Below, one piece after another: positions 20,312 to 64,000 of a stretch of 64,000 nucleotides of DNA (positions within the stretch are counted from its first letter, which is position 1; every line of letters begins with the position of its first letter). The notes under the pieces are model-generated. The model worked only from the letters and a program-made list of their open reading frames with translations, did not search any database and was not told the DNA's origin. Source of the DNA: a virus; IMG/VR virus record IMGVR_UViG_3300034166_000560; one strand, 5' to 3'. Made by a program: the position numbers and the translations under genes.

Positions 20312-21072
20312 ACGACGCTAAGATTATTGCAGTAACACAACCGCTTATTGAAAACAAAAACGATGTTGGGCAAATTCGTTGTGATAAGATGACACCCAAC
20401 GAATTTATCGCATACACCGCCCGAGTATCTAATCCATCCAATCAGCATAACACACTAACATCAGAAAAACTCCTCAAGTATCTAATCGAACATAAGCACT
20501 GGTCTCCGTTTGAGATGGTTTCTATCACAATGGAAATCAATACAACTCGTGATATCTCTCACCAGATCATTCGCCATCGTTCTTTTTCGTTTCAGGAATT
20601 TAGCCAGCGTTATGCCGATCCCACTAAGGACATGCAGTTTGTAACGAGAGAAGCAAGACTACAGGACGCCAAGAACCGTCAGAATAGTATTGAGGTTGAT
20701 GATAAAGATTTGGAAGAAGAATGGGATGTTCATCAACACCTAGTAAAAAGTCAGGCAGAATATTCTTATAAAAAGGCTATTGAACTTGGCATAGCAAAGG
20801 AACAAGCAAGAGCAATTCTACCAGAAGGTCTAACCACAACCCGTCTATATATGTCAGGGACGCTTCGTTCTTGGATTCATTACATTGACGTTAGAGCCGA
20901 AGAAGGCACACAGAAAGAACACCGTCAGGTTGCTCTTGCTGCACAGGAAGAGATTCTAAAACACTTCCCGTCATTGAAAGAATATTGGTTTCCAGAGCCT
21001 TGGTTTCATGGTGTTCCTGTGAATAAGTCGGAAGAAGAACCTAAATCATGGTGGTGGAGATTTTGGTCATGA
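20308..21072 (+). CDS. thyX: flavin-dependent thymidylate synthase
   Basis: HWSPFEM, QIIRHRSFSFQEFSQRY, KEQARAILP, TQKEHR. Confidence 0.96.
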   Translation: MNDAKIIAVTQPLIENKNDVGQIRCDKMTPNEFIAYTARVSNPSNQHNTLTSEKLLKYLIEHKHWSPFEMVSITMEINTTRDISHQIIRHRSFSFQEFSQRYADPTKDMQFVTREARLQDAKNRQNSIEVDDKDLEEEWDVHQHLVKSQAEYSYKKAIELGIAKEQARAILPEGLTTTRLYMSGTLRSWIHYIDVRAEEGTQKEHRQVALAAQEEILKHFPSLKEYWFPEPWFHGVPVNKSEEEPKSWWWRFWS

Positions 21073-57741: not shown

Positions 57742-57766
57742 AAAAAGAGGGGAGCCGAAGCTCCCC
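57742..57766 (-). terminator. intrinsic terminator with a UUCG loop
   Basis: GGGGAGC-TTCG-GCTCCCC followed by TCTTTTT. Confidence 0.85.
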
Positions 57767-57773
57767 ATTCAAA

Positions 57774-58427
57774 TTAGAATGTTGAGTGCTGCTCAACTGC
57801 AATAAAGTATTCCACGTCCTTACCAATGAACTTAGAAATACCTCGTGCTGAAATGGTGACCTCATAATCACCAGGAAGAATCTTAATGTTCTCAAACTTA
57901 AAGACTGCGTTAAAAGTCTTTGTAGTTTCTCCAATTGGTAGAGAAAACTCATTACCTGGATTCTTTGAGTTAGCTGCCTTTAGGAAAACAGTCTTGCCGT
58001 CACCAGCAACAACGATTTCTGGCAGACTCAAAACACCAGCAGCCTTCTCGACCTTATTAAGATCTTCGTTCTTTAGAGTAAAGGTAACATCCGTTGATGG
58101 AATGTTAATATCCTTCTCTGGAGCCTTAGTGATTGTGCTCTCGTCAGCAAGAAGGAACTTGCCCTGTTCCGAAGAAGAGTCCTTCATATAAACAAAAGTC
58201 TCATCGATTTCTAGATCTGGGTCATTGTATAGACTCAGGCTAGAAAGGAACTGGTTAAGATCATAGATGGCAAACTTCTTAGTAAACTCTGTCGGAACAG
58301 TAGCCTTTGCCATAATGGTCTTATTTGGGGAAATGGTCTTAAGAACATTACCCTGCTGAACAACAATCGAAGGATTAATCTTTGAGAAGTTCTTCAAAAC
58401 ATTTACTGTATTAGTATCAATCTTCAT
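57774..58427 (-). CDS. 45: sliding clamp (gp45)
   Basis: LKNFSKINPSI, FAIYDLNQFL, ENIKILPGDYEV, YFIAVE. Confidence 0.95.
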   Translation of the reverse strand: MKIDTNTVNVLKNFSKINPSIVVQQGNVLKTISPNKTIMAKATVPTEFTKKFAIYDLNQFLSSLSLYNDPDLEIDETFVYMKDSSSEQGKFLLADESTITKAPEKDINIPSTDVTFTLKNEDLNKVEKAAGVLSLPEIVVAGDGKTVFLKAANSKNPGNEFSLPIGETTKTFNAVFKFENIKILPGDYEVTISARGISKFIGKDVEYFIAVEQHSTF

Positions 58428-58441
58428 TATATAATCTCCAC

Positions 58442-59308
58442 TTACTTCTTTTTGCCTTTGTCTTTATACTTACCAAGTGCACCTGGATCGGCGGTCGCAG
58501 AAGCACCAACTGAAGCAAGATCAGCCAACGAACCACCAAAGATATAGGTGCCTACGTGCTGCATCTTCATCCATGGACAGAACCATGTACGCAGTCCAAT
58601 TTCCTGAGCCTTCTGACAGAACCAATAATCTTCTGAAAGATAACGCTTAGACTTAGGATCGATCTCTGCCTGAAAGAACATCATGATTTCACGAGTGCCA
58701 TCAAAGTGTTCAGTACGGACATGATCTGGTTTATAATTATATTCTGGATAAGAATCGACAAACTTCTGCATTGCCTTCTTAGAAACCATCATGAAGCCAG
58801 TTCCAATTTCAAGAACTTCTACTGGTTCGCTAAGAGGAATAGACTGCTGCCCACCCTTTGGATTGAAGACATAATCGCCAACGAACTTTTCAAGGACGTT
58901 TGGATCTTCGTCAGCAACACCCTTATCAACAGCGTGCTTAACCTTTTCCCAAGAAATACACTTCTTTGGATATGGTCCGCCAATGATGTCATACTTATCT
59001 TCTTCCTGAACCTGAAGAGCCATAAGCGCAATGACGTCCTGTGGATTGAATCCGATGTCAGCATCAATAAACATCATGTGCTGCATATTGGAACGCATAA
59101 ACTCGTCACAACAATAGTTACGTGCACGAGGAATTAGTGATTCATTAAACAAATAATAAAACTGTAGAGGAATACCATACTGTGTGCACAAAGCAGACAA
59201 GTCAGCTGACGACTTTGCGAACATACCTGCACACTGTCCACCATACATTGGCGTGGCGACGAATAGACCACGCTCTCTCAATTTTTCAATAGGGATCTGA
59301 ATTTCCAT
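58442..59308 (-). CDS. GT-A fold glycosyltransferase-like protein
   Basis: VATPMYGG, NESLIPRARN, FIDAD (DxD), GTGFMM, YLSEDYWFC. Confidence 0.8.
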   Translation of the reverse strand: MEIQIPIEKLRERGLFVATPMYGGQCAGMFAKSSADLSALCTQYGIPLQFYYLFNESLIPRARNYCCDEFMRSNMQHMMFIDADIGFNPQDVIALMALQVQEEDKYDIIGGPYPKKCISWEKVKHAVDKGVADEDPNVLEKFVGDYVFNPKGGQQSIPLSEPVEVLEIGTGFMMVSKKAMQKFVDSYPEYNYKPDHVRTEHFDGTREIMMFFQAEIDPKSKRYLSEDYWFCQKAQEIGLRTWFCPWMKMQHVGTYIFGGSLADLASVGASATADPGALGKYKDKGKKK

Positions 59309-59320
59309 TATATACCTTTC

Positions 59321-59530
59321 TTATGCTACTATAAAACTTTTAAACTTACAAGTATTACAATGAACTGCTTTTTGTGGAGGAAGCGAAGTTGTTACTACTG
59401 AGGGATTTGTATCTTGTAATTCATCTCCACAATGAGGACAAGCAATGCCTGTTCCTAGATTAATAAAATGAGACATATATTCTCTATGTCTACGCTCGTT
59501 ATGATCATGAAAATCTTTCAATTCTTTCAT
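59321..59530 (-). CDS. zinc-ribbon small protein
   Basis: CPHC..CNTC. Confidence 0.55.
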   Translation of the reverse strand: MKELKDFHDHNERRHREYMSHFINLGTGIACPHCGDELQDTNPSVVTTSLPPQKAVHCNTCKFKSFIVA

Positions 59531-59970
59531 TTCTTATCCTTATAATGATCGTTGTATAACATCATAAGAGTGTAATGAAGAACCTTCATAAGATCTGCTT
59601 TGTTGCTACCGTTCTTCTTACCGTAGCGCCAGAGATACTTAATAGCTGTGTTTCGGAAGGTAGGCATAGAATCACCGAGGGCGAGCCACACGTCGAAACA
59701 TTCTATATTTTGCTCTTCAGTCATATAATGTTGCCCATATGTCTTGTCGATATAGGCGTGGAAGTCACGAATAATTTCGTCTTCCTTATATTTATATTTA
59801 GGCGGCCAAGTTGAAGCAATTGGCGGATCCATGCTCATTCCAACATAAGGATCTTCTTGTCGCTTTGAACCAACAGCACCAGTAGGACCAGTTGCACCAA
59901 TTGCCTGCGCTGACGCAGAAAGCGGTTGACCATAATAATCGCCATTCTCAAATCTATAAGTTTTGGTCAT
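59527..59970 (-). CDS. DUF3310-like protein
   Basis: QHY..IECFD..AIKYLWRYGKK..DLMKVLHY. Confidence 0.75.
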   Translation of the reverse strand: MTKTYRFENGDYYGQPLSASAQAIGATGPTGAVGSKRQEDPYVGMSMDPPIASTWPPKYKYKEDEIIRDFHAYIDKTYGQHYMTEEQNIECFDVWLALGDSMPTFRNTAIKYLWRYGKKNGSNKADLMKVLHYTLMMLYNDHYKDKK

Positions 59971-60506
59971 GAGTTCTCCAATTTATTCATAATATCTTCA
60001 ATAATAAATTTCTGATCGTCTTTGTTATTATTTTTATATCTATTAGTGTTAAACATCAGAGTCATGTTTGTCATAATATTAGCAATCTTAGTTTCACGAC
60101 CCTGCAACCAAGTTTCGTTCTGATTGCTACCACGTTCCTTGTATCGCTCTTGGCGAACTTCCTTATCAGTTTCTAGATAAATGATTTCAGTATCGTAATT
60201 CTCAACACAATGTTCTAGGAACGTTGACGTGAAAAGACGATCGCCTTCGAAAAGAACGACCGCATCTTTATCTAAACTTGCTAGGAATTTAATTGCTTCT
60301 GGCTGAACCGCCATTGACATACGGTCTGTACCCGAGAAGGTTTCGCCTTCGTCATACTTACCAAGAATATAATATTTTCCATACTGAAGATAGGGAACGA
60401 GCTTCACGCTATCATAAATCTTAGACCAAACAAACTTAGTAAGAATTTCTTTCATTAACGTAGACTTGCCAGCACCTGGCTCACCACCAATCGCAATCAC
60501 TTTCAT
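59967..60506 (-). CDS. P-loop nucleotide kinase (DNA-modification associated)
   Basis: GGEPGAGKST, GTDRMS, FEGDRL, RYKERGS. Confidence 0.75.
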   Translation of the reverse strand: MKVIAIGGEPGAGKSTLMKEILTKFVWSKIYDSVKLVPYLQYGKYYILGKYDEGETFSGTDRMSMAVQPEAIKFLASLDKDAVVLFEGDRLFTSTFLEHCVENYDTEIIYLETDKEVRQERYKERGSNQNETWLQGRETKIANIMTNMTLMFNTNRYKNNNKDDQKFIIEDIMNKLENS

Positions 60507-61483
60507 TACATAAACCTTTCAATACCGACACTCTCAGGTTCAACAAACAAACCTGTGCAATCTAGAACGCCATTCTCAATATATAAAGCCATTTTACTAT
60601 TGTCAATCTTGTTTGTCAACAGTTTATTATTTAGAGTTTCATTTCGAGCGTCCCACATTGGTTGCCAATCAATACCATCCCAGCCATCCTTTTCACATTG
60701 AGCAATTTCTTCTGCCTGACGATCAAGATAGTAACTCAGGTAACGACCATGTTTTACTCTGAATAACTTTTTAAAAGAACAAAGACACGTTTCCATATCG
60801 AAATAATCAGTGTCAGGAAATTCCTCTTGAACTTCTTTTAGAATATAATATGCCTGACCGTCCAAATAGTTTATCTGTTTGGCATTTAGTTTTTGATCAT
60901 ACCATTGATCTAATCCAACAGCGAGGCATAAACCGTTACGATGAGAACGAGAACCTGAATGATCTTCTAGCATTAGATTACCAGGTTCAATAGGCAGATC
61001 ACAACACTGTTTTAATGTTTGTAAATAGAACCAAGTAGAATATCTACCGAACTTATGGAACTTGGTTTTCACTTCATCCCATAGCATATCAAAGTTTTCT
61101 CTTGGCGTTCCAGTAAGAAACGGACGAAACGCTTCTATCTGGGAACGATCTCCAACCCAGTTCTTATACGATTCAAACTGCGCAGGTAAATGTCCTTTGT
61201 TCCATTTAGTGTCTGTTTGATAACGTAGGCGTTTATAATTCTTATTGTTCCAATCCTTTAGGCGATCAAGACCAACAAGTTCCATATCAGGAAACTCATT
61301 CCATATCACCCATGTTGTTGGAAAATAATACGTTGTGCCGTAGATCCAAGCAATCCAGAGTTTTTGTTCTCTGTTATGCTCAAATCTTTTGAAAAGATAA
61401 TTGGTCATGAATATCGCCGGATCGCAATCCTTAATGGAAAGTGACCACTTATACCAATTAATAAAGTCTTGTTTAACTTTCAA
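60506..61483 (-). CDS. amino acid:DNA transferase-like protein (aGPT-PPlase clade 2)
   Basis: LRYQTDTK, HKFGRYSTWFYLQ, SHRNGL, METCLCSFKK. Confidence 0.7.
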   Translation of the reverse strand: MKVKQDFINWYKWSLSIKDCDPAIFMTNYLFKRFEHNREQKLWIAWIYGTTYYFPTTWVIWNEFPDMELVGLDRLKDWNNKNYKRLRYQTDTKWNKGHLPAQFESYKNWVGDRSQIEAFRPFLTGTPRENFDMLWDEVKTKFHKFGRYSTWFYLQTLKQCCDLPIEPGNLMLEDHSGSRSHRNGLCLAVGLDQWYDQKLNAKQINYLDGQAYYILKEVQEEFPDTDYFDMETCLCSFKKLFRVKHGRYLSYYLDRQAEEIAQCEKDGWDGIDWQPMWDARNETLNNKLLTNKIDNSKMALYIENGVLDCTGLFVEPESVGIERFM

Positions 61484-62121
61484 CTCAAGAAACTTTCAAG
61501 GGACGAATTGTTATATAATGCAGAGCGCAACCAATACTTTCCAACAGAATTTATTGCTTCTTCTACCTTTGTTTTCTTTTTTGTGCCAAAATTATGATTC
61601 TCTAAACCTTCAGAAAGAAATTGTTCGATGACTTTTTCTGGTGGCAACACCTGAGTAGGGTTATTAACTCCATACTGTTGATATTCTAATTGCTCTTTTC
61701 TTGTAGGAAATAATTTTTGATCAGAACGAAGAGAACCAGTAGGATCAACAGCCCAAAATAAAAGACCATTTCTCATATGCCATGTAACAGAAGAAGGCGT
61801 GCAAGATATCTTTAATCTATCAGAACGTTTTTCTTTGACTGCGTATGAGATATATTCTTCCCAAATCTTGGAAGCGTAACCCTTACCTTCTTTACCTTGG
61901 ACAGTTACAATCTCATACAGGTTAGTATATCCAGAACGATTGTATGTTGCAAAGATAATAGAAACTATTTCATTATCTACTTCAAGAGCAACAGGCGGTG
62001 CTTTATCGTAGTTCTTAAACCTGAACCATAGTGAATGTGCAGCTTTTAAAAAGTTTGTGTTTCTACCTTCTGGAGACTTTTCAATTATACCATTAACTTG
62101 ATCTGCTGTTAAAAATATCAC
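61480..62121 (-). CDS. GNAT-like acetyltransferase
   Basis: NLYEIVTVQGKEGKGYAS resembles the acetyl-CoA-binding motif A. Confidence 0.55.
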   Translation of the reverse strand: MIFLTADQVNGIIEKSPEGRNTNFLKAAHSLWFRFKNYDKAPPVALEVDNEIVSIIFATYNRSGYTNLYEIVTVQGKEGKGYASKIWEEYISYAVKEKRSDRLKISCTPSSVTWHMRNGLLFWAVDPTGSLRSDQKLFPTRKEQLEYQQYGVNNPTQVLPPEKVIEQFLSEGLENHNFGTKKKTKVEEAINSVGKYWLRSALYNNSSLESFLS

Positions 62122-62801
62122 TGTAAGTCCTCGATTGATGGAAACTCATACCTATTATAGCTTATAACTTTGAAATTATCAATAATGAAATGTTCAAACA
62201 TAGGAGCAGCTACTTGAATATCTAATCCGCTTCTTTTTAGAATATCTGCTGTTGATGCAAATATAATACCATTTGCTCCATAAGAATAATGCAATGGTCT
62301 GGCTTCGTTACGGAAAGCAGTAATTACTTTATCTTTATCAAGAGTGCAAACCGACATGCTTGCAGGATGGAACTTATGTAAAGGGAGTTCGCCTTTCTCT
62401 AAACAACGAAGAATAAGTTCGCTATCATTCTTTGTGATAACATCATAACCAAATGTTTCTTTCCATTGTTCTGGATTCTCCTGAGAGATAACTCCATTAT
62501 GAACAATAGAAAGTTCTTCGGTTGCCATTGGTTGATTGTAAGCAAGATCGCTAGTTGAGTAACGAACATGACCAATACAATATAGATTGCCATCTTCATT
62601 AACCCAACTAGGAATATCTTGATTGTTTATGAATGTGCAAGCATTAACAGGTTCTTTAATAGTGTGAACCTTGCCATCTTTGACATATGATACACCAGTG
62701 GCATGTTTACCACGGATCATTGACTGAACAAAAAGCCGACGAACAAGTTCGAATTCCTGCTCGCTCGGCTTCTTGATCGCTATTCCTAGCACTCCGCACA
62801 T
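62118..62801 (-). CDS. class II glutamine amidotransferase / Ntn-hydrolase domain protein
   Basis: N-terminal MCG, RGKHATG, GHVRYST, NQP, HNGVI, NDSE, RPL. Confidence 0.85.
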   Translation of the reverse strand: MCGVLGIAIKKPSEQEFELVRRLFVQSMIRGKHATGVSYVKDGKVHTIKEPVNACTFINNQDIPSWVNEDGNLYCIGHVRYSTSDLAYNQPMATEELSIVHNGVISQENPEQWKETFGYDVITKNDSELILRCLEKGELPLHKFHPASMSVCTLDKDKVITAFRNEARPLHYSYGANGIIFASTADILKRSGLDIQVAAPMFEHFIIDNFKVISYNRYEFPSIEDLQ

Positions 62802-64000
62802 TAGAAGAATGACTCCAATGAAGCAGCAGCGTCTTTACCGTATGGATCTTTCATATTATGAGCATGAAGATATTCATACCATTCTTTGTCATCCCACATT
62901 CCAGGAGAGACGCCATTCCATAGTGGACGCTGAAGTGGATGAGCCTTATTCATACGACGTTCTTCGACATATTGTTTACGTAACGCTTCATACTCATAAG
63001 ACTTTAGTTCTAGCATCTTCTCACGGAAGTAACAAATTACTGAGATTCTTTCACAAGTAGAATCATCCGGATTGTTAAGAACAATAGGAGTATTACCATG
63101 AATGATTTCGTGGTTGTTAACAAGGAGCAAATCACCGGGACGAACATTAACAGCAACACGATACTCAGGAAATACGAGATAGCCACCAGTATATTCTCCT
63201 GTGCCTAGAACGAGTAGATTAGAAAGACCAGCATCAAGATCACCAGCGTCTCGATGACAGGCAGTGCGGAAAGTTTTATTAACTGTAATTGTGGTAAATA
63301 CAGTTTCTGGTACAAGGAACCGAGGATCTAACTTATCTGCAGCTGCTCGCTGATTACCCCAACGCCAAGGTAGTAATTCCTTGAAACCCTTATTCAGTGA
63401 TTGGAGGAATGGGTATGCCAGTTCGAAAAGTTCTGGATGCTTTTCAGTGTATGACGTTGCACGCCCGTAAGGAATGCGAGGGTAACGATCGTACCAACCA
63501 GCAACACCTGAGAATACGGATTGTGCGTAATTAGTGGCAGAAGCCCACTTTTCTGCGACCATTCTTGCTTCGGCATGAATTTCCTCCTGTGGTTTATTAC
63601 TTAGGCCATCCACCCATTTATCAAACCAATCATGATATTCTGGATAAACCTTTGTTACCTCTGAACGCAACCAAACAACACCACGTGTTTCTTCAGCACC
63701 TTTTGGACCACCGTTTTTATATTTTTCTCTGATGGATTCGATTGATGTATCATCAATAAGAGATGCACCATCATTCATAAGGAACTCTAGTATCTCCATC
63801 TGATATGGAGTAACCCAATCTCTACCACCACGGCTTTGCGCTGCAAGCATTTCACCACGAGGACCAGCAGCATGGCCACGATTCTGGCTTTCAGTCGCAG
63901 CTTCTCTCAAGCCACGATAAGCCATATCCTGTTCTTCTTGACTGAAATAGTTTTTACGAAACTTGAAAGCAATACGCAATTCGTCATTGCCCTTTTCACA
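62801..64000 (-). CDS. TET/JBP-family 2OG-Fe(II) dioxygenase (5' end outside window)
   Basis: FTTITVN, TACHRDAGD (HxD), GGYLVFPEY, PGDLLL..HEIIHGNT, RISVICYFRE; frame stays open to the window end. Confidence 0.82.
   Translation of the reverse strand, partial: CEKGNDELRIAFKFRKNYFSQEEQDMAYRGLREAATESQNRGHAAGPRGEMLAAQSRGGRDWVTPYQMEILEFLMNDGASLIDDTSIESIREKYKNGGPKGAEETRGVVWLRSEVTKVYPEYHDWFDKWVDGLSNKPQEEIHAEARMVAEKWASATNYAQSVFSGVAGWYDRYPRIPYGRATSYTEKHPELFELAYPFLQSLNKGFKELLPWRWGNQRAAADKLDPRFLVPETVFTTITVNKTFRTACHRDAGDLDAGLSNLLVLGTGEYTGGYLVFPEYRVAVNVRPGDLLLVNNHEIIHGNTPIVLNNPDDSTCERISVICYFREKMLELKSYEYEALRKQYVEERRMNKAHPLQRPLWNGVSPGMWDDKEWYEYLHAHNMKDPYGKDAAASLESFF

Follow-up and report, generated by a model that had tools for sequence, protein, structure and literature searches.

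Two described kinds of gene set come closest to the locus considered here. Metavirome clusters that combine a TET_JBP/5mYOX dioxygenase with a glutamine amidotransferase (GATase), a P-loop kinase and an amino acid:DNA transferase (AADT) have been published (Lee 2021, PMC8989533, Fig. 2 sequences 22-25; O'Toole 2026, PMC13229309, clade C1). In the Pseudomonas phage PaMx11, the AADT gp46, the flavin adenine dinucleotide (FAD) lyase gp47, the GNAT acetyltransferase gp48 and the 5-hydroxymethyldeoxyuridine DNA kinase (5-HMUDK) gp49 produce 5-acetylaminomethyl-deoxyuridine (5-AcNmdU) in a pathway reconstituted in vitro, with the GNAT enzyme acetylating 5-aminomethyl-deoxyuridine (5-NmdU) (PMC8989533). 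The stretch of DNA analyzed here, referred to as the window, covers 64,000 nt and corresponds to positions 14428-78427, read on the reverse strand, in a 90,245-bp IMG/VR contig (IMGVR_UViG_3300034166_000560; estimated completeness ~54%) from an uncultured freshwater T4-like phage, and it carries a TET-GATase-GNAT-AADT-kinase cassette close to the gene for the gp45 sliding clamp. As in the published metavirome clusters, PF12851, PF13522, PF18724 and PF18751 occur in one operon with no neighboring C5-methyltransferase or dUMP hydroxymethylase, an arrangement in which thymine would be oxidized in situ and then hypermodified. The locus shares with PaMx11 a kinase, an AADT and a GNAT protein expected to work on a base derived from 5-hydroxymethyluracil (5hmU), and the end product is likely the same or similar, an N-acylated aminomethyl-uracil.

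The favored reading of the cassette is a sequential pathway on replicated DNA. Replication would use ordinary dTTP made via thyX, a gene seen in the window. Thymine in DNA would then be converted to 5hmU by the TET/JBP enzyme, as its family and context suggest, the 5-hydroxymethyl group would be phosphorylated by the P-loop kinase, by homology to 5-HMUDK, and the phosphate would be displaced by a nitrogen nucleophile on the AADT, again by homology. The probability of this general scheme is roughly three in four. The two steps that would follow are put forward tentatively: the nucleophile may be ammonia released from glutamine by the class II GATase, giving 5-aminomethyl-deoxyuridine, and the GNAT protein may acylate the new amine, most simply to 5-AcNmdU, with a more elaborate acyl group also possible. 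PaMx11 would reach that base by a different route. TET, the GNAT protein and, more loosely, the AADT might dock on gp45, with modification following the replication fork and the clamp standing in for the ParB helper of other AADT-linked phage thymine dioxygenases.

The five-gene core

The features on which this reading draws are listed below, with E-values after the family names.

62801-64174, minus strand: TET/JBP (5mYOX) dioxygenase, 457 residues; PF12851, 1.6e-23; phrog_24024, 3e-150
62118-62801, minus strand: stand-alone class II (Ntn) GATase, 227 residues; GATase_6, 6.6e-11; GATase_7, 7.6e-7
61480-62121, minus strand: GNAT-fold acyltransferase, 213 residues; AlphaFold2 model and Foldseek
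60506-61483, minus strand: AADT (aGPT-Pplase2 type), 325 residues, TTG start; PF18724, 8.3e-26
59967-60506, minus strand: P-loop kinase of the 5-hmdU DNA kinase family, 179 residues; Ploopntkinase3 PF18751, 5.2e-13
59527-59970, minus strand: DUF3310 protein, 147 residues; PF11753 borderline; phrog_480, 2.6e-24
59321-59530, minus strand: zinc-ribbon protein, 69 residues, CxxC...CxxC; phrog_30869, 3e-7; weak zinc-ribbon Pfam matches
58442-59308, minus strand: GT-A fold glycosyltransferase-like protein, 288 residues; AlphaFold2 model and Foldseek, DxD
57774-58427, minus strand: gp45 sliding clamp, 217 residues; gp45-slide_C, 7.4e-18; phrog_223, 7e-69
57749-57766, minus strand: terminator-like GC-rich hairpin of 7 base pairs (6 GC), then a T-run, TCTTTTTGAT
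20386-20973, plus strand: thyX, flavin-dependent thymidylate synthase; PF02511, 2.5e-45; contig G000:C1:57455-58042

A reading made earlier from the sequence alone (the sequence-only reading) had named most of these genes, and all the cassette genes it named are present on the minus strand, in a run that proceeds from 64174 to 57774 without a break and with overlaps mostly of 1-4 bases. For TET/JBP, GATase, AADT and kinase the assignments are borne out by Pfam matches above the curated cut-offs: 83.2 bits for TET (PF12851, gathering score 34.9), 42.8 for the GATase (GATase_6, cut-off 27), 91.6 for the AADT (PF18724, cut-off 26.2) and 49.4 for the kinase (PF18751, cut-off 27). The profile searches thus place 60506-61483 in PF18724 and 62801-64000 in PF12851, and not in unrelated families.

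The TET gene extends past the window end, leaving its first 58 codons outside. Residues H307-x-D309, H355, H359, R376 and R384 are invariant in 27 orthologs, and by motif the HxD...H residues are assigned to the Fe(II) triad and an Arg to 2-oxoglutarate binding; sequence and profile searches of the PDB with this protein returned weak NgTET matches at most. Its N-terminal 239 residues have no match in Pfam, and an Atlas feature search of the region gave weak Tet_JBP-like leads (0.83). A fused ParB or SNF2 domain is therefore unsupported. The TET orthologs of the phages Cr30 (KF301602.1 59353-60681) and DLP6 (KU682439.2 27179-28525) are annotated as "SNF2 DNA repair protein", a label that is probably an artefact carried over from JBP2, because no SNF2 domain was found in the ortholog in the window.

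The kinase gene overlaps the AADT stop codon, and its product has the Walker A motif GGEPGAGKST, with G8, G13, K14 and T16 conserved. Only 5hmU chemistry is known for the kinase and AADT families, the kinase having been characterized as a 5-hydroxymethyl kinase (PMC8989533). The AADT begins at a TTG codon that overlaps the GNAT stop codon, and at least 95% of 28 homologs share both F7, near the N terminus of the resulting 325-residue protein, and C235; the latter is a candidate active-site Cys for attack on pyrimidine C6. Public gene calls place the start of this protein at internal ATGs (259 or 300 residues), cutting into the Pfam domain.

Assignment of the 213-residue protein to the GNAT superfamily, proposed in the sequence-only reading, holds at the level of fold. 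Pfam gives only a sub-threshold match (Acetyltransf_1, E 0.006, 17.3 bits against 20.7), and PDB sequence and profile searches with this and the GT-A protein gave nothing usable. The AlphaFold2 model, built from 31 homologs, reaches a mean predicted local distance difference test score (pLDDT) of 94 and has 196 Foldseek matches in the PDB at E <= 0.001, the best from 7e-6. Nearly all of the 50 best matches are GNAT proteins or N-acetyltransferases, SpeG and PA4794 among them. C-terminal helices add about 70 residues to the GNAT core. There are 519 homologs in public metagenomes, some with a precomputed PF00583 match, and none was detected in 50,697 deposited phage genomes or records. Profile comparison with F7, the GNAT family of the relatives, aligns the core motif with a probability of only 4% and so does not establish a common origin.

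Thymine as the likely substrate

The TET/JBP enzyme most likely makes 5hmU from thymine after replication. This substrate is indicated by the family assignments, by thyX and by the failure to find either a ThyA-type hydroxymethylase or a C5-methyltransferase in the contig. The thyX gene is present, as the sequence-only reading had stated, and from it we infer that the phage makes ordinary dTMP and replicates with dTTP. Pfam searches of the 90-kb contig found no ThyA-family match, and therefore no classical dUMP or dCMP hydroxymethylase there, and no C5-methyltransferase (PF00145). In the literature, TET_JBP clusters with a kinase and an AADT have been read as making 5hmU in situ (PMC8989533), and phage 5mYOX enzymes whose genes are linked to those for GATase, kinase and AADT have been classed as thymine dioxygenases (PMC13229309). 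The central proposal of the sequence-only reading, that hydroxymethylation by TET after replication is followed by hypermodification through kinase and AADT, fits these data.

Several points weigh against this assignment. The contig is ~54% complete, and a C5-methyltransferase, a dUMP hydroxymethylase or a ParB gene could lie elsewhere in the genome. ParB-less 5mYOX enzymes of clade C1 were inactive on both thymine and 5-methylcytosine (5mC) in E. coli assays (PMC13229309, PMC8256090), and thymine-oxidizing activity in the ParB-less subgroup, including the TET studied here, is a prediction. A search of the 90-kb contig for ParB_N (PF02195) at E <= 1 gave no match, and the cassette contains no unassigned open reading frame (ORF) of ParB size. 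In some relatives, a protein of ~430-490 residues (family F10; L022:11712-13193 and six homologs), absent from the window, sits between GNAT and AADT and has a weak ParB_N match (E 0.06, residues 208-258); it could be a ParB-like activator of those relatives' cassettes.

A polymerase-like tail and the sliding clamp

Two enzymes of the cassette end in a peptide that also closes the DNA polymerase. Among the 381 ORFs of at least 50 residues in the contig, only three have the motif L-[DE]-x-F-[FLM] in their nine C-terminal residues: the 841-residue family B DNA polymerase, identified by Pfam (...TLEDFFND), TET (...SLESFF) and the GNAT protein (...SLESFLS). The expected number of such endings is about 0.26 (P ~0.002, indicative only, as the motif was chosen after a lead), and the AADT has a looser version, ...GIERFM. 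The tail is kept in relatives on the polymerase, TET, the TET-associated glycosyltransferase (TAGT), the GT-B enzymes, family F15, most AADTs and both GNAT families, with variable linkers preceding it. The GATase, kinase, amidoligase, methyltransferase, DUF3310 and GT-A proteins lack it. The gp55 late sigma homolog (L002:8661-9236) ends in ...GVEKFSEVEENEE, a looser L-E-x-F motif followed by an acidic run, which may be a clamp-contact element.

In T4 and RB69, the polymerase binds gp45 via its C-terminal tail. The short hydrophobic C-terminal peptide of gp43 in these phages resembles the one that the polymerase has in common with the putative clamp clients here, and docking of the tailed enzymes on gp45 is, in our estimate, an evenly balanced proposition. 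We know of no phage base-modifying enzyme with an accepted clamp interaction. Structure prediction of the gp45-GNAT complex gave an ipSAE of 0.53 (best control, 0.00), rated as "weak support". Of 80 solved complexes, 58 attained this mark, as did 2 of 110 mismatched pairs; scores of 0.60 or below among those reaching it came from 7 of the 80 solved complexes and from both mismatched pairs. At least 65% of contacts agree between runs, with partner pLDDT of at least 88. If the tail does dock on gp45, this would account for the access of post-replicative enzymes to each new duplex and might also explain the apparent inactivity of ParB-less enzymes in E. coli. The AADT-linked thymine dioxygenases published so far depend on a ParB-like partner (PMC13229309), and ParB itself acts as a clamp on DNA. 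The phage considered here has the tail, and no ParB was found in its contig.

The tail might instead have nothing to do with docking and be a lineage-specific tag for degradation, assembly or packaging, or a relic of gene shuffling, with the enzymes finding DNA on their own. This explanation is doubtful but a serious contender, as three observations argue for it and at the same time against docking. The kinase lacks the tail although it acts on DNA, which makes the equation of a tail with action on DNA imperfect; the gp45-GNAT prediction is weak and may echo solved clamp-peptide complexes; and an older claim that the T4 alpha-glucosyltransferase binds gp45 was not reproduced (bioRxiv 10.64898/2025.12.06.692756). 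A tag or relic is harder to reconcile with the fact that the only other contig protein with this ending is the DNA polymerase, the very enzyme that in T4 and RB69 reaches gp45 through such a tail, and with conservation of the tail after variable linkers on unrelated folds, namely TET, the GT-A-like TAGT, GT-B, GNAT and AADT.

Source of the nitrogen

The GATase begins M-C-G, and at least 95% of 16 homologs retain C2, R80, N102-G103 and D126. By analogy with PurF and GlmS, we take C2 to be the nucleophile, R80 to bind the glutamine carboxylate, N102-G103 to form the oxyanion hole and D126 to bind the glutamine amino group. The protein thus looks like a true glutaminase, encoded as a stand-alone 227-residue domain without a fused synthase partner. 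Its ammonia-accepting partner would be the AADT, to judge from co-occurrence and clade structure. In relatives, the GATase always accompanies an AADT and, with one exception (L072), a GNAT as well. A maximum-likelihood tree separates all 17 GATase-linked AADTs from the others at a branch with support of 90/89, and AADTs from GATase-less cassettes form four other long-branched groups. The AADT of the window falls in the GATase-linked clade. Such a clade is what a distinct nucleophile specificity would predict; relatedness alone can also cluster these proteins. No ATP-dependent ligase is found among the cassette genes, and the phosphate ester would therefore be the only activated electrophile available to ammonia within the five-gene core.

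Two observations weigh against ammonia delivery. Most GATase-bearing relatives also have an amidoligase-like gene, so that the GATase may belong to an amide chemistry lost from the cassette in the window, and characterized AADTs use amino acids or polyamines and not ammonia (PMC8989533, PMC13458397). In the published TET_JBP clusters with kinase and AADT, "glutaminotransferase/amidoligase genes of unknown function" are recorded (PMC8989533).

In an alternative, the AADT moves an intact amino acid, such as Gln, Glu or Gly, onto phosphorylated 5hmU, the GATase-like Ntn hydrolase trims or deamidates it on DNA and the GNAT protein acetylates what remains. Stand-alone Ntn or GATase-like domains can be amidohydrolases, and in relatives the core is joined by amidoligase-like, radical SAM and FAD enzymes, suggesting a larger side chain. 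Retention in the GATase of the Arg and Asp that presumably bind the alpha-carboxylate and alpha-amino groups of glutamine, as in PurF and GlmS, speaks against trimming on DNA, as do the absence from this protein of the clamp-like tail of enzymes thought to act on DNA and the separate clade of GATase-linked AADTs, which fits a distinct nucleophile. Despite the precedent that all characterized AADTs transfer amino acids or polyamines that are tailored later (PMC8989533, PMC13458397), we regard this alternative as unlikely. The sequence-only reading had proposed transfer of an amine or amino acid followed by amide processing and acetylation. Its phosphate ester, nitrogen adduct and later tailoring are retained here; its amino-acid and amide steps are less parsimonious than delivery of ammonia by the GATase, because the glutamine-binding residues are kept and an ATP-dependent ligase is lacking.

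A broader proposal joins the two preceding ones: the base-rewriting enzymes of T4-like phages (TET, AADT, GNAT and the alternative glycosyltransferases) would be clients of gp45, and the GATase and AADT would work together as a split amidotransferase, aminating a base in DNA directly. As a conjunction this is speculative and, on balance, doubtful. If true, hypermodification would be coupled to the fork, gp45 would assume the role of a ParB-type CTP clamp, and 5-aminomethyl-uracil would arise without an amino-acid intermediate before being capped by the GNAT protein.

Other substrates for the dioxygenase

Action of the TET enzyme on 5mC, with hypermodified cytosine as the outcome, would need a C5-methyltransferase from the unsampled part of the genome or from the host. 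Among phage TETs, clades A and B consist of 5mC dioxygenases (PMC8256090), and the contig, at ~54%, leaves room for further genes. Published phage TETs of the 5mC type adjoin a C5-methyltransferase, and only 6% of 5mYOX pathways co-occur with one (PMC13229309); kinase and AADT families confined to 5hmU chemistry (PMC8989533) likewise argue for thymine. With no PF00145 match in 90 kb, a cytosine substrate is very improbable.

GATases classically amidate activated carboxylates. In a further route, TET would take thymine on to 5-formyl- or 5-carboxy-uracil, the carboxylate would be activated by the kinase, GATase ammonia would yield a carboxamide, and AADT and GNAT would act on another intermediate. 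This route is scarcely credible even though characterized phage thymine dioxygenases support iterative oxidation in vitro (PMC13229309), since the kinase family is characterized as a 5-hydroxymethyl kinase (PMC8989533), nothing here points to carboxylate chemistry and the AADT would be left without a role.

A swappable slot between TET and GT-A

A scan of IMG/VR with the TET protein returned 80 loci (L007-L086) at 59-87% identity, and the 61 that have both TET and GT-A genes were compared. TET and GT-A, with gp45 just beyond, are fixed anchors, and the stretch between them is swappable, holding at least six cassette types. In 18 loci the slot contains a TAGT (PF20691). About 17 loci have a longer cassette of GATase, amidoligase-like protein, GNAT (3e-13), an optional 490-residue protein, AADT and kinase; 8 have AADT, an inositol-1-phosphate-synthase-like protein and kinase, as in Caulobacter phage Cr30; 5 have an N6/N4 methyltransferase with AADT and kinase; and other loci have a GT-B enzyme or the kinase only. 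The slot is a hot spot for exchange of DNA-modification chemistry within one phage lineage.

The order in the window, GATase, 213-residue GNAT, AADT and kinase, occurs at none of the 80 loci. The exact arrangement is present in at least 24 independent contigs from several Joint Genome Institute (JGI) samples, which rules out an assembly chimera as the source of the gene order. The GATase and AADT in the window are 92-95% identical to those in the loci with the longer cassette, and the cassette looks like the longer one with the amidoligase, GNAT and 490-residue segment swapped for the 213-residue GNAT gene.

The five-gene core of TET, GATase, GNAT, AADT and kinase is also found on long contigs of a second T4-like lineage, at another place in the genome, after the gp41 helicase gene, with identities of 56-60% for TET, 44-50% for GATase, 62-65% for GNAT, 53% for AADT and 44% for kinase. 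The sequence-only reading had considered the enzyme set unusual; the combination of TET, GATase, kinase and AADT is published, and the core is widespread, to judge from the 519 GNAT homologs and the second lineage. In one genome of that lineage (GCA_013558295.1, 172 kb; L087:10073-13047), genes for a radical SAM protein and a Trp_halogenase-type FAD protein are inserted before the kinase, which suggests a further tailored product.

Flanking genes and transcription

DUF3310, the zinc-ribbon protein and the GT-A protein are not counted as dedicated steps of the predicted pathway because they are found with other cassette types and, for GT-A, also in phages without a TET match. The sequence-only reading had included GT-A and DUF3310 in the modification set, a role that their occurrence beside other cassettes in relatives does not favor. 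Its call of DUF3310 as such is borderline in Pfam (PF11753, 23.9 bits against a cut-off of 24) and backed by phrog_480 at 2.6e-24. DUF3310 and zinc-ribbon genes accompany several cassette types, DUF3310 for example both the TAGT and the AADT type. At the DUF3310 position, L064:13216-13656 and relatives (family F9) instead encode a dGTP_diPhyd_N protein (PF18909, 3.5e-29), and the two kinds of protein may have equivalent nucleotide-related roles. The 69-residue zinc-ribbon gene at 59321-59530 was missing from the gene list of the sequence-only reading.

The GT-A protein belongs to no Pfam family, and its identification, which the sequence-only reading had anticipated, holds at the fold level. 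The AlphaFold2 model is of moderate quality (pLDDT 75) and matches the LH3 glycosyltransferase domain, STIV A197 and GalNAc-T2 in Foldseek (E from 2e-6). Its DxD motif is D82-A-D84, both aspartates being invariant in 30 homologs, and it has a lysine-rich end. The gene, which lies 14 nt upstream of gp45, accompanies every cassette type in relatives, and homologs at 45-55% identity occur in the Sinorhizobium phages phiM12, phiN3, phiM7 and phiM19 and in Ochrobactrum phage vB_OspM_OC, T4-like phages with no TET match. GT-A is therefore unsupported as a dedicated step and is probably a lineage gene fixed beside gp45.

In Pfam and PHROG searches, the neighbors of the cassette are gp47/gp46, peptide deformylase, a MazG-like pyrophosphatase, gp45, gp44, gp55, UvsW and UvsY. 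A terminator-like hairpin stands directly 3' of gp45, the last gene in the run, and the cassette appears to be co-transcribed with the sliding-clamp gene. A scan for sigma-70-type promoters found nothing above chance, and a DNA search of the cassette region against 50,697 phage records gave zero matches. Past the window end, a gene for a MazG/PRA-PH-type pyrophosphatase (64171-64551) overlaps the TET start codon and is preceded by one for a 187-residue DenV-like protein (64544-65107; phrog_624, weak Pyr_excise match), both within L002:13321-14257. Their position is kept in most relatives, and a link to the modification pathway is possible.

Comparison with described systems

TET-initiated thymine hypermodification in phages is so far known from gene neighborhoods and assays of the dioxygenase alone, with no end product. 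The class of cassette that unites TET, kinase, AADT and GATase is already published and is not new, and the published accounts assign neither a function to the GATase nor a product (PMC8989533, PMC13229309). This locus differs from those clusters in its 457-residue TET with a polymerase-like tail and in a minimal core without an amidoligase. It also departs from the "ParB-dependent" subclass of O'Toole 2026, no co-located ParB being found in the 90-kb contig. PaMx11 obtains its 5hmU from a nucleotide-level hydroxymethylase, whereas TET would supply it here, and its amine comes from glycine and an FAD lyase, in place of which this locus has a GATase and no FAD enzyme.

Among cultured T4-like phages, Cr30 (Caulobacter) and DLP6 (Stenotrophomonas) have TET orthologs at 48-50% identity and GT-A proteins at 58-65% in the same replication-gene neighborhood. 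Cr30 has an AADT near its TET with 30% identity to that of the window, and of the isolates it comes closest to the module of the window, which in its exact form has no cultured host; DLP6 is unmatched by the AADT in the window, and neither phage is among the matches to its GATase or GNAT protein. Cr30 also has an inositol-1-phosphate-synthase-like gene, as in the "AADT-F8-F11-kinase" cassette of relatives, and no kinase is annotated in its cluster.

In trypanosomatids, base J (JBP1/2 plus a glucosyltransferase) likewise arises by post-replicative conversion of thymine to 5hmU by TET/JBP enzymes, followed by decoration. There the decoration is glycosylation, in contrast to the phosphate ester and nitrogen chemistry proposed for this viral system, and the sister phages with TET and a TAGT in the slot look like a direct analogue of base J. 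The notion of a DNA-modifying enzyme riding a replication clamp has a eukaryotic parallel in DNMT1 tethered to PCNA. In the slot between TET and gp45, one phage lineage swaps DNA chemistries, presumably under pressure from host nucleases. Relative to the described systems, the new elements are the minimal five-gene core, found in two T4-like lineages and at least 24 contigs with no amidoligase and no ParB found in the contig, the swappable slot, the single clade of GATase-linked AADTs and the polymerase-like tail on TET and GNAT. The locus thus offers a compact, recurrent five-gene core to reconstitute, free of the amidoligase and ParB helper that complicate the published examples.

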